The notes under the pieces were generated by a model that did not search any database, had not been told where the DNA came from, and worked only from the letters and a program-made list of their open reading frames with translations. A stretch of 64,000 nt of DNA from an uncultured Poribacteria bacterium (GTDB lineage Bacteria > Poribacteria > WGA-4E > WGA-3G). The translations under genes were made by a program, and so were the position numbers. The DNA lies in NCBI GenBank assembly GCA_951813565.1, contig OX638351.1, positions 4,096,001 to 4,160,000 of the forward strand, read 5' to 3'. Positions 29,080 to 60,907 of the stretch are shown here, piece after piece (within the stretch, counting starts at the first letter, position 1; each line of letters starts with the position of its first letter).

Positions 29080-29368
29080 TAACTGTCAATTTAAGCACAT
29101 AATTACCGGATTATCTCTTGTGGGAGGGCTTTGAAAGCCCGACTTTGTGAGATTCAAACAGGTAAATCCAAATCAACGCTGAATACGTGTTTGGTATTCA
29201 GCGGGTGTCACAGCGTTGATTTAAAGGTAGCAGGTATACTCCGTCCGCCGTCCGCTCACATATTTTTGGAAAATATACGGCACACGGCGTGTGCCTACTA
29301 CTTTGCATGTGTATTATCAAGGTTGAAAACTCTCTCACAAGAAAGATTACACGTTAAATTGACACCTG
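29080..29368. mobile_element. MITE (TGTCAATTTAA ends) containing nested REPs and a micro-insertion at 29169-29202
   Basis: TAACTGTCAATTTAAG..TTAAATTGACACC; internal TCTTGTGGGAGGG..CTCTCACAAGA; CAAATCAAC GCTGAATAC GTGTTTG GTATTCAGC. Confidence 0.7.
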
Positions 29369-58540: not shown

Positions 58541-58889
58541 AATGTATCAGTTTAACACAAGATGGTTGGCGATTCAAGTATGATGTCTGCTAAGCACGCC
58601 TATAGGCAGATGTTCACCTATTTTTTTTCTAATATAATTCGGTTTGTTTAACATAAAATACACGTTAATATCAAATATTGAGTTATTTTGAAAATTAATT
58701 TGACTAATTTAGTCAGGTCTAGTATATTTATAATCATGTGTTCGGTAGAAACAATTTTTGGGAATTGGTCCGATGAATCAACGCCAAGTGCCATAAGACA
58801 CTTGGCGGGAAACCGAACTTATCGTGGTCGTAAGAGTAGAATTCAAAGCATAGAGAGCTTCATATCTCTTACACCGAACTGACGTTGTA

Positions 58890-59390
58890 TCAGTTTTCAA
58901 CACCTGATTCATTCCATTGTGCGTGGCGCTGAAGGGTACGGATATCAATCCCTAACGATTCAGCTGCTTCACGTAAGGATGTAAACTTCTCAATACGCAT
59001 CTGCGCAACAGCGCGTAGAATTTGATTTTGATTCATTTTTCCTATGTTAAGTGCTTCCGCTTCTTCTGCAGTTTTTGCATTGACGGAATTTCTCACGCTA
59101 TACCACGGTTGCGGTGTTTGCGTGGAGAGTTCATGCATAATTATATGCTGCGTCTCTGGATGGAGTGCTTCCCATATCGCGTGCTGCGTATCAGAGGCAA
59201 GTGTTCCCCATATAGAGATTAGAGTCTGTAAGAACTCAGGATATATATTTGGAAAATCTTTTGGTTCAAGAGTATCAGTAGTGGCGAGCGCAATAGCAGT
59301 TTGAATAGTACTTCTGAGCTGCCGAATATTGCCGGGCCACGCAGCTTGTTCAAGACGAGTGAGTGCCTCTGGACTAATGCCTTTAACGCT
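58890..59390 (-). pseudogene. C-terminal remnant of a sigma54-dependent activator (NtrC/Fis family)
   Basis: Reads GISPEALTRLEQAAWPGNIRQLRSTI into a Fis-like HTH (SLREAAESLGIDIRTLQR); no start and no AAA+ core. Confidence 0.75.
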
Positions 59391-59395
59391 CCCCC

Positions 59396-59803
59396 GTCAA
59401 ATCCCCATGCTTTAGCTTGTGGGATGTCCACGGCTAACAATGTGATGGACAGCACGAAATGTCCAGCGAAAGCGGAATAAAACCCATCGCTATAACGAAA
59501 TCTATAAAGTTGGTGGATAGCGTCCATATCAAGCCACTGCAGCACTGCAGCACTGCAGACTGGAATGCGTGAGCGGAGGCAACCCCTCCCGAAGTCTAAG
59601 GACTTGTCGCGTGGCGTGCCTGGTAGAAAGGGCAGCTATAAAATGGGTGGAAACAGAGCCAACCCACGACATTGCGAAAAATAAATCAAACGGGCAGGCT
59701 TGGCTGCCTAAAGTGGAGCGACACTAAGACGGTGGACGCTAAGCGAAAACCGCAGTCGCGAGGAAGCACAAGCCCCTACCTTTAGGTAGTGGGTACCTAT
59801 GAC
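59396..59803 (+). mobile_element. Non-autonomous IS200/IS605-type element without ORF
   Basis: Left hairpin GTCAAATCCCCATGCTTTAGCTTGTGGGA; right hairpin AAGCCCCTACCTTTAGGTAGTGGG..TGAC. Confidence 0.65.
59690..59803 (+). ncRNA. Candidate TnpB omega-RNA (reRNA) scaffold
   Basis: GCCT..GTGGAG..TAAGAC..GCA..GAAGCA.AAGCCCC-hairpin order resembles tnpB right ends as recalled; not model-scored. Confidence 0.5.
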
Positions 59804-59911
59804 TTATCTTTTGCTAATTCCTATAGTAGCTTATGTTTTTAACACATTGCGGTAACAGGTATTCCAAAATCTTAGCAATTGAAGCGTGAAATATTAGACC
59901 CGTAAAGAATT

Positions 59912-59927
59912 TGGCATGGAATTTGCT
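59912..59927 (+). promoter_or_regulatory. Putative sigma54 promoter with no obvious downstream CDS
   Basis: TGGCATGGAATTTGCT (GG-N10-GC). Confidence 0.45.
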
Positions 59928-60221
59928 TATTTTCTTAAGTTGCAATGTAACTCTTTCGCAAATATTTGGAGTGTTTAGTTAGACATAGGACTTTATGACA
60001 TAGGCACATACCAAGTGCCTTAATGCTGTAGGCGCGCCTGTCCCTCTCCCCTAAAGGTGCGCTTACAAAATCGCGATTTGGGTAGGCGCGCTAATCAAAT
60101 CGCGATTTATGGTGGTAGCGGTCTTCGGATCGCTACTGTCTTTTTTATAGTAGATTTTATACCATTTCCATGTGATTATATTGCATTGTGTCTTAGGTCA
60201 AGTTTCACTATGCCCTACCCA

Positions 60222-60465
60222 TAGGTGTCAACTTAAGAAAAAAATGATGGATTTTCTCTTGTGGGAGGGAAACTTTGTCCGCCCGATTTTGTGAGACTCA
60301 AACTGTTAAATCCAAATCAACGATGAATGCGCCTATGGCATTCATCCAAATCAACGCAGCATGCGCGTCCGACATGCTGCCAAATCAACGCTGAATGCGC
60401 GTGTAGGCATTCAGCGGGGTTGAAAACCCCTCCCACAAGAAGGTGTATCCTTAAGTTTACACCTA
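60222..60465. mobile_element. MITE (same end family as 9487-9700) with REP doublet and triple micro-insertion array
   Basis: TAGGTGTCAACTTAAG / CTTAAGTTTACACCTA. Confidence 0.75.
60313..60415 (+). repeat. Tandem array of three different CAAATCAAC-hairpin units
   Basis: Units 60313-60346, 60347-60380, 60381-60415. Confidence 0.9.
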
Positions 60466-60608
60466 TGGGTAGAGTGAAGCGAAACCCAATTCAACCGTCT
60501 TGACAGTCCTAAAGAGTTGGGTTTCACTTATTTTCAGAAATATAGACCTCAAATGGGTCAACAACCTCTCTTTAGGGTTTGTTTTTATTGTCCATTTCCG
60601 TTCTACTT

Positions 60609-60641: not shown

Positions 60642-60753
60642 CCCTACCGGATTTATCAAACTCACGTTACATTAACGACTTGTGCCAGTTAACATTTTGT
60701 TTTGTTGGTTTTCACATATATTTGCATTTGTGCTATAAACATATCGTCCCTAC

Positions 60754-60822
60754 CAAATCAACGCCAAATGCGCCAAATCAACGGTCCGAATGCCTTTTGG
60801 CATTCCCCGTATGGCATTTGGC
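60754..60822 (+). mobile_element. Micro-insertion with a second unit nested in its loop (60774-60808)
   Basis: CCCTAC[CAAATCAACGCCAAATGCGC[35 nt]GTATGGCATTTGGC]GGGACTAA. Confidence 0.9.
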
Positions 60823-60873
60823 GGGACTAAAGAGTGCTCGTCCAATCATTTTCTATAAACATATCGTCCCTAC

Positions 60874-60907
60874 CAAATCAACGCCAAATGCGCTTATGGC
60901 ATTTGTC
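60874..60907 (+). mobile_element. 34-nt micro-insertion
   Basis: CCCTAC[CAAATCAACGCCAAATGCGCTTATGGCATTTGTC]GGACT. Confidence 0.85.

Follow-up and report, generated by a model that had tools for sequence, protein, structure and literature searches.

The question raised by this locus is how three different hairpin units came to be lined up head-to-tail at one intergenic site, downstream of a branching-enzyme-like gene in an uncultured Poribacteria genome, and whether they were acquired one after the other, as an earlier note on this DNA had proposed. The window, i.e., the whole 64,000-nt stretch of DNA analyzed here, corresponds to positions 4,096,001-4,160,000 of a one-contig genome of 5.43 Mb with 43% G+C. 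The sequence bore out the layout given in the earlier note: the units occupy positions 60313-60415 of the window and measure 34, 34 and 35 nt, with AAATC before them (60308-60312) and GGGGTT after them (from 60416). Every array unit is made up of CAAATCAACG and a hairpin, followed by a terminal C; counting the C in front of it, the conserved head reads CCAAATCAACG. The stems differ among the three units (ATGAATGC, CAGCATG and CTGAATGC, respectively) and all three end in C, again as had been described. The features referred to below are as follows.

60202-60223, unstranded: left half of an outer palindromic repeat (GTTTCACT...CCCATA) whose centre holds the inserted host element; an inverted repeat, paired when the DNA is folded.
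60224-60312, plus strand: host element, left arm; terminal inverted repeat GGTGTCAACTTAAG at its start, inner inverted repeat TCTTGTGGGAGGG at 60257-60269, TTAAATC at its end; 199 BLAST hits in the genome.
60313-60346, plus strand: unit 1, head plus hairpin ATGAATGC / GCATTCAT with loop GCCTATG; exact sequence single-copy.
60347-60380, plus strand: unit 2, head and a hairpin of the CAGCATGC type, which is common, its stem having a single mismatch (C.A); exact sequence single-copy.
60381-60415, plus strand: unit 3, head plus hairpin CTGAATGC / GCATTCAG; adjoins the mini-hairpin; five exact copies of the whole unit.
60416-60430, unstranded: mini-hairpin GGGGTTGAAAACCCC, the landmark with arrays on either side; here site 2 (right side) is empty; 137 genome copies.
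60431-60463, plus strand: host element, right arm; inner inverted repeat CCCTCCCACAAGA at 60428-60440, overlapping the mini-hairpin, and terminal inverted repeat CTTAAGTTTACACC at 60450-60463; 232 BLAST hits.
60464-60485, unstranded: right half of the outer palindromic repeat (TATGGG...GCGAAAC), seen as an inverted repeat and in the fold.
29083-29366, plus strand: another copy of the host element, the same site holding a single unit (29169-29202) that is followed by a reversed head and other repeat DNA.
60753-60830, plus strand: nested example, a GTCCGAATGCC-type unit within the loop of a CCAAATGC unit, with the geometry of the 27 nested cases described below.

When folded as single-stranded DNA, units 1, 2 and 3 each formed a hairpin right after the head, with 9, 8+2 and 10 bp and energies of -7.8, -10.3 and -11.7 kcal/mol, respectively (z -3.6, -3.5 and -4.8). 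The 296-nt region as a whole had a fold z of -9.3, the three unit hairpins being enclosed by a long outer stem. The mini-hairpin GGGGTTGAAAACCCC formed 6 bp and was by itself not better than shuffles. In sister elements (the nearest subfamily), the stem type of unit 1 was confined to the first array position, and among CTGAATGC-type units the first 23 nt past the head were identical in 26 of 34. The earlier note had held that the same triple at many unrelated loci would point to movement as a block. The exact 103-nt triple has a single copy in the genome; the A-like/B/A order of unit types recurs at the same site in two sister elements, at 92-93% identity to the triple, and arrays therefore also travel with their host element. 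Within the 60313-60415 array there is no duplicated or hybrid unit, so that its own history is not directly readable, and all that we conclude about array change is drawn from paralogues and from other species.

The units belong to a large family. The motif AAATCAACG was found 17 times in the window (1.04 expected; none of 100 shuffles reached 17) and 817 times in the genome (approximately 58 expected for this 9-mer), and the 11-nt head 519 times genome-wide (approximately 2.7 expected). The copy number of AAATCAACG is far above chance. Spacings between motifs on the same strand peaked at 34-36 nt (78 pairs), corresponding to tandem units, and at 20-21 nt (34) and 28 nt (53), both corresponding to nested ones; in 227 of the 817 motif copies, the head is directly followed by a perfect hairpin of 6 bp or more. 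Runs of strict heads comprised 44 pairs, four triples, two fours, three fives and one nine. Site-1 arrays span from one to at least nine units, longer arrays having been among the things that the earlier note had suggested looking for. The stems, of 8-10 bp, fall into few types, i.e., CAGCATGC, CCAAATGC, CTGAATGC, CTGAATAC, ATGAATGC and a GTATGAATGCC/GTCCGAATGCC type, and stem positions 3-6, 8 and 9 are occupied by several Watson-Crick pair types, both in the source genome and in other species. Solitary old copies keep the head only as AATCAACG. No strand bias of the units relative to replication was detected (246 vs 208; 34 vs 31), with an irregular GC-skew curve that makes the origin and terminus uncertain; the cumulative skew is lowest at 0.49 Mb and highest at 5.05 Mb, which is very lopsided for a closed chromosome.

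Searches of 18 further genomes of the genus showed the head to be enriched in every one of them, with 13-297 copies as against 0-9 for a control word, whereas it stood at background level in 12 genomes of seven other genera. When one genome per species was scanned for pairs of heads with 20-27 nt between them, at least 93 loci came up; among the 80 listed, 71 were from Poribacteria, three from an "uncultured bacterium" and six from other taxa. These last six, among the matches listed, bore no similarity to the source genome and are probably chance occurrences. Other species of the genus share the head but have different stems (e.g., CCGAATCC, CCACATGCC), and their arrays reach up to 10 units. 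Rfam returned no family for the array at the gathering threshold, nor at E values up to 1, and the literature that we searched on Poribacteria repeats, palindromes or the head sequence contained no description of the unit family.

The array lies within a MITE-like host element (60224-60463) with 14-nt terminal inverted repeats and approximately 200 copies in the genome. The copy at 29083-29366 is missing from the orthologous spacers of two other species (G002 and G017), from which it follows that the host element is mobile. At the array locus itself the element is absent from the orthologous locus of other species, synteny ending at approximately 60146-60168. The statement in the earlier note that the homologous site at 29168/29169 holds one unit proved correct: the unit lies at 29169-29202 after AAATC, and a reversed head and approximately 100 nt of other repeat DNA then precede a remnant of the mini-hairpin. 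The DNA following this single unit (29203-29320) contains the reversed head CGTTGATTT and a GTAG-type palindrome (GGCACACGGCGTGTGCC…TAC), indicating that several repeat families have been piled into one centre.

Public sequencing data placed the locus in other samples. Eight runs from four studies contain the stretch, and the four that were examined consist of short contigs breaking inside repeats. Contigs from three of these four cover 59800-60303 and those from the fourth cover 59800-60286; in addition, one run yielded a 71-nt contig identical to 60293-60363 and another a 95-nt contig with four other letters and one gap. Other samples thus have the host element, unit 1 and the first part of unit 2 at the same locus, the contigs joining the unique flank to the element and unit 1 to unit 2. 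No contig spanning the whole array was found in the four examined runs, whose short contigs end inside repeats, and a metagenome contig scan with a 24-nt unique flank gave no matches.

Comparison of host element copies pointed to the mini-hairpin as the place where units gather. Units occur on both of its sides, with the hairpin end always facing the mini-hairpin; the left junction is AAATC^GGGG and the right junction, read on the other strand, is its mirror image. Among the 137 mini-hairpins, 17 carried units on the left and 42 on the right. In the nearest subfamily (n=37), two copies were empty on both sides, 17 were left-filled and 18 were filled on the right only. In another subfamily (n=22), the right side held 1, 35, 70, 103-104, 137-139, 172 or 270 nt, i.e., one-unit steps of 0, 1, 2, 3, 4, 5 and approximately 8 unit-lengths. 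Two subfamilies, with left arms that are different all the way to the junction, both include empty and filled left sites, and an orthologous pair between species shares the same AAAT^CGGGG and mini-hairpin junction, empty in the source genome and filled in the other species. The C^G junction that the earlier note had described fits these empty and filled copies, as well as the 27 nested insertions considered next. The 5' foot of the GGGG...CCCC mini-hairpin is a genuine hot spot, the site that the family prefers, with graded occupancy among paralogues.

Signs of insertion were also seen away from the mini-hairpin. All 27 simple nested units start one base past the outer 5' arm and involve three outer types and one inner type; 10 of the 27 share one signature and may be copies of a single event. 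A 5-nt target duplication (GTATG or GTCCG flanking nested units) was considered and dropped, the combinations being mixed. Isolated heads with a hairpin had single-copy flanks in 37 of 258 cases; 24 of these 37 units were family members, as judged by reading the list, and (C)GG follows in 16 of the 24. On this evidence, some genuine insertion of units has to be assumed as well. A solitary unit with only AATCAACG conserved is present in otherwise single-copy DNA at 58763-58820 of the window (near 58775); at the orthologous spacer, G006 shows a plain hairpin of 13 bp centred on GGTTAGAAACC, in an alignment too diverged to fix boundaries. A 41-nt sequence in the window (…ATATCGTCCCTA, then a CCAAATGC unit) is exactly duplicated, with copies at 60733-60773 and 60853-60893, a distance of 120 nt. 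Since units at other places in the genome and in other species are preceded by the same 5' context, it is another unit carrier.

Once arrays are compared with one another, the copying of neighbours becomes apparent. In eight arrays with at least two CAGCATGC units, one loop variant is found throughout, although at least four common variants exist in the genome, and the loop variant GAGTTTG is found in one array only, four times there; two lineages have differing variants. Homogeneous runs of five and nine units are present in the source genome, and many in other species. At genome position 70019 there is an array with the rare unit 1 loop of the 60313-60415 array; it is what remains of the latter when 34 nt from one CAT word to another are removed, a hybrid hairpin being the result. 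The array at 533646 stands in the same relation to the one at 2324029; such 34-nt out-of-register deletions account for the hybrid hairpins. In the internal CTGAATGC unit seen most often, the last base is mismatched (…CAT ahead of the following head), a form that would match unequal exchange between the first (A…T) and last (C…G) units. On either side of the mini-hairpin the unit types follow one another in alternation, in keeping with a period of two units. Most array change thus looks like local duplication or deletion of neighbours. The earlier note took the different stems as a sign that this is not simple tandem duplication; arrays in general mostly change by the copying and deletion of neighbours, as seen from private variants repeated in place and from the hybrid hairpins.

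The arrays are, in addition, polar. In 14 of the 16 left-filled copies the unit on the mini-hairpin side was one of two identical sequences, as compared with 13 different 22-mers, partly from nested inserts, among the far units. Exact copy numbers were also scored in 25 arrays that border on a mini-hairpin: the unit at the far end of the run that was scored proved single- or two-copy in five of them, and the near unit in none; in the 60313-60415 array, exact 20-mer copy numbers were 1, 2 and 26, rising towards the mini-hairpin. The left arms of host copies were 0.61 identical (median; IQR 0.51-0.73), as against 26 identical CTGAATGC units out of 34. Arrays sharing a uniquely marked unit (a nested insert) had their extra units on the mini-hairpin side (none in four copies, one in one and two in three), and the far B unit varies among these arrays, which indicates exchange between arrays. 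The polarity fits polar growth, but could equally be expected from gene conversion anchored at the conserved mini-hairpin side, since the mini-hairpin and inner repeat offer good homology and the diverged left arm none. Slippage alone does not explain uniform units on the mini-hairpin side beside host arms that are only approximately 61% identical. The last unit of an array cannot be copied by slippage between heads, and the uniformity of near units favors polar insertion unless gene conversion is invoked.

A search for candidate enzymes returned ten matches to Y1 (HUH) transposases in the genome: five IS200/IS605 TnpA, two subclass-1.2-like and three RAYT-like, of which two are intact. Both intact RAYT-like genes have one unit 75-115 nt upstream, and their flanks hold other, GTAG-type repeats. 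The first is found in the stretch 242020-243100 of the genome, where it is followed by approximately eight tandemly spaced GTAG-tagged repeats (GTAGGAGCGAGCTCCAGCTCGCGAC-like); the second, at 5070794-5071258, is bracketed by GGCGAGGTTTCCTAACCTCGCC palindromes. RAYT-like genes were not co-distributed with the units, being present in 12 of 18 genus genomes and also in three genera without units, with no match in four genomes that have 62-151 heads. The same was true of the subclass-1.2-like protein, found in 10 of 18 genus genomes and also in other genera. The two subclass-1.2-like proteins carry the Y…Q..HH motif, which is described for Y1 subclass 1.2 in the account given in PMC6006769. One of them, at genome positions 3097995-3098471 (motif YIKNQEIHH), has AGCACC…GGTGCGAAAGGTGTATA palindromes on both flanks, in contrast with the statement in that account that members of this subclass are generally without typical end structures (PMC6006769). 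Resident IS200/IS605 elements were rejected as a source of the units, their end hairpins (CCCCTNCCTTTAGGTAG...) sharing nothing with the head or stems. A repeat of approximately 420 nt at 59382-59803 of the window has at least eight other genome copies at 91-98% identity; its last 120 nt or so are the right end of a resident IS200/IS605-family element (TnpA and TnpB in four copies, TnpB only in more than 20), and it is probably a miniature derivative with the TnpB-side end.

The likening of the array to CRISPR or integron growth was not supported by these searches. No integron integrase was found in the genome, the best match to TIGR02249 scoring 33.1 bits against a cut-off of 265 (genome position 4.77 Mb), and there are no cas genes near the array, Cas1 lying at 1.20 and 3.99 Mb, at least 167 kb from the array at 4.156 Mb. 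Three CRISPR-like arrays are present near 1.198, 2.831 and 3.992 Mb, one with at least 54 repeats, together with the two Cas1 genes; their repeats are unrelated to the units. The more general proposal of sequential polar acquisition at a self-renewing site fared better in part: the graded occupancy, the C^G junction and the polarity, with 14 of 16 near units in two classes, agree with it, whereas the few alternating stem types, the copying of neighbours, the hybrids and the order shared by sister elements do not.

The explanation that we favor, and hold to be probable without being sure of it, is that the array consists of selfish or neutral REP-like repeats of one Poribacteria genus, which would change mainly by slippage and unequal exchange, with occasional insertion, and would hold no record of acquisition. 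Units would occasionally be inserted at hairpin feet and at one fixed loop position, by an agent that probably recognizes single-stranded hairpins. Where two or more units are present, the sequence patterns show that the array grows and shrinks mainly through slipped-strand events or unequal exchange, taking place between the 11-nt heads and the ATGCGC loop edges, which are conserved. The transposing host element carries arrays along, as its sister copies show, and exchange with sister arrays may keep the units beside the conserved mini-hairpin uniform, although this uniformity could also reflect selection for function.

Polar sequential acquisition in the strict sense would have a site-specific single-stranded-DNA enzyme add single units at C^GGG beside the mini-hairpin, restoring the junction so that the newest unit is nearest the mini-hairpin. 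It draws on the contrast between near units in two identical classes (14/16) and 13 different far 22-mers, on the far unit being single- or two-copy in 5/25 arrays and the near unit in 0/25, on the copy numbers of 1, 2 and 26 towards the mini-hairpin, and on the gain of units on the mini-hairpin side in marked arrays; units are also far more uniform than the host arms, and one junction is common to two host subfamilies and another species. We nevertheless judge it unlikely, for the strict alternation of two types and the identical private variants in each array point to neighbour copying, slippage of unit length is seen in the hybrid units, and 120 of 137 mini-hairpins are empty on the left, many despite AAATC. 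Moreover, there is no integron integrase (33 bits vs 265) and no co-distributed Y1 transposase, the varying far B unit among marked arrays indicates exchange between arrays, and gene conversion anchored in the conserved mini-hairpin and right arm also predicts the polarity. It seems distinctly unlikely that the unit is a gene-free nano-transposon of 34 nt, whereby an unlinked putative single-stranded-DNA enzyme would read the head and a structure-only hairpin and insert at the feet of the GGGG...CCCC mini-hairpin and at one fixed loop position, the restored C^GGG giving rise to polar arrays with the newest unit beside the mini-hairpin.

At the other extreme, the units might form a purely passive minisatellite, never mobile by themselves, spreading inside larger carriers and forming arrays only via slippage or recombination. 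Most units do lie in repeated carriers, single-copy flanks being found for only 37 of 258 isolated hairpin heads, the order of unit types is common to sister elements, and pneumococcal BOX elements behave in this manner according to the account in PMC3049150. What makes it improbable is that 27 nested units stand at one exact loop position in three outer types, that empty and filled sites differ at one precise junction in two host subfamilies and between species, that 24 solitary units lie in single-copy DNA, and that the 11-nt head is invariant over 19 species while the stems change freely, which suggests recognition by a factor. The least probable explanation, which is compatible with any mechanism, is that of a functional array whose heads bind a host protein or whose hairpins act in the transcript (stability or termination), with the number of units under selection. 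The head invariant throughout the genus, the covarying stems, the greater uniformity of the units relative to the surrounding repeat and the intergenic position downstream of the branching-enzyme-like gene would suit such a role; the lack of an Rfam match, whether with the gathering threshold or with E values as high as 1, the free variation of copy number and position between species at orthologous spacers, and the stem mismatch in frequent internal units count against it.

The array has known relatives in design. The boxB module of pneumococcal BOX elements is approximately 45 nt long; the central modules in Poribacteria measure 34 nt and come in several alternating, covarying stem types, the likeness being one of design only. 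BOX elements of Streptococcus pneumoniae are described as boxA, a variable number of boxB and boxC (PMC3049150). According to the same account, they are MITE-like composites with pairing outer modules and a self-folding central module in variable tandem number, this number changes by slipped-strand mispairing or unequal crossover, and elements insert into each other (PMC3049150), all of which resembles the present case. Here, the outer modules carry 14-nt terminal inverted repeats and have moved as a unit (approximately 200 copies, absent at orthologous sites), and the central tandem module varies from zero to at least nine units at the same site among paralogues. Unlike BOX modules, the Poribacteria units are mirror-oriented on both sides of the mini-hairpin and also occur solitary, in other carriers and nested in loops. 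As far as the published accounts of them go, BOX elements and REP/BIME repeats appear to be the closest in design.

The likeness to REP, BIME and REPIN sequences lies in high-copy extragenic palindromes of 20-40 nt with an unpaired conserved tag at the 5' foot, forming mosaics and confined to lineages, as these are portrayed in PMC3733652, PMC3479197 and PMC2817692. The present units are likewise small, high-copy and extragenic (34-36 nt, 817 motif copies, hairpin right after the head). The REP tag is given as an unpaired GTAG (or CGTC) at one end (PMC3733652), whereas the unpaired conserved part here is 8-11 nt long, AATCAACG, or CCAAATCAACG in arrays. In place of a cognate single-copy RAYT, the intact RAYT-like genes are flanked by GTAG-type repeats and are not co-distributed with the units. 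A BIME is presented as regularly spaced REPs in alternating orientation (PMC2817692); units within an array have the same orientation, and only the arrays flanking a mini-hairpin mirror each other. The BrickBuilt MITE of Porphyromonas gingivalis, as depicted in PMC4596501, is similar in having a spacer-less tandem array inside a MITE with leader and tail subunits, an intergenic location and variable forms. It repeats a single 23-nt unit (PMC4596501), however, and the Poribacteria units, which share a conserved head, are hairpins of several types and are found outside the carrier as well.

The array resembles an integron, by resemblance only, in its folded single-stranded hairpins with a short conserved motif and its polar order at one fixed junction. 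The consensus of the integron core is G^TT, and insertion here takes place away from it; in further contrast to integrons, the genome has no IntI-type integrase and most arrays show neighbour copying. Integron cassettes, whose attC hairpins are inserted at attI, usually consist of a gene and an attC site, and the present units of 34-35 nt abut with no gene between them. Rather than identical repeats with unique spacers as in CRISPR, the variable parts of 23-25 nt are a few palindrome types (e.g., 26 identical copies of one), and Cas1, at 1.20 and 3.99 Mb, is not adjacent to the array at 4.156 Mb. Nor do the units share end hairpins with IS200/IS605, as a miniature element derived from it would. 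By description, they are also like the SDRs of Nostocaceae, i.e., very small, seemingly mobile repeats inside other repeats and without a known enzyme. These are said to have been described by Elhai et al. in 2008 and are reportedly 21-27 nt long. We rejected an identification of the units as Nostocaceae SDRs, the genome being that of a Candidatus Poribacteria, i.e., of another phylum, and without a photosystem reaction-centre family. In the genomes referred to in the relevant part of PMC5861425, a citing paper, no SDR-like repeat occurred outside Nostocaceae.

How the smallest bacterial repeats spread (REPs without RAYT, CGTC repeats and cyanobacterial SDRs) is still an open question. The present family offers clean landmarks, i.e., an invariant 11-nt head, free stems, one exact insertion point in the loop and one exact junction at the mini-hairpin, in hundreds of arrays of zero to at least nine units from approximately 19 species of an uncultivated sponge symbiont. 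The units break short-read assemblies at these loci, and they are fast-changing markers for the typing of Poribacteria strains. If the nano-transposon idea were true, it would represent a cassette-less and integrase-less analogue of integron growth, and would provide a handle on the movement of REP- and SDR-like mini-repeats. If the polarity reflects insertion, the arrays would record the order of arrival of their units; if it reflects slippage and conversion, the family would be one more modular repeat of the BOX kind.
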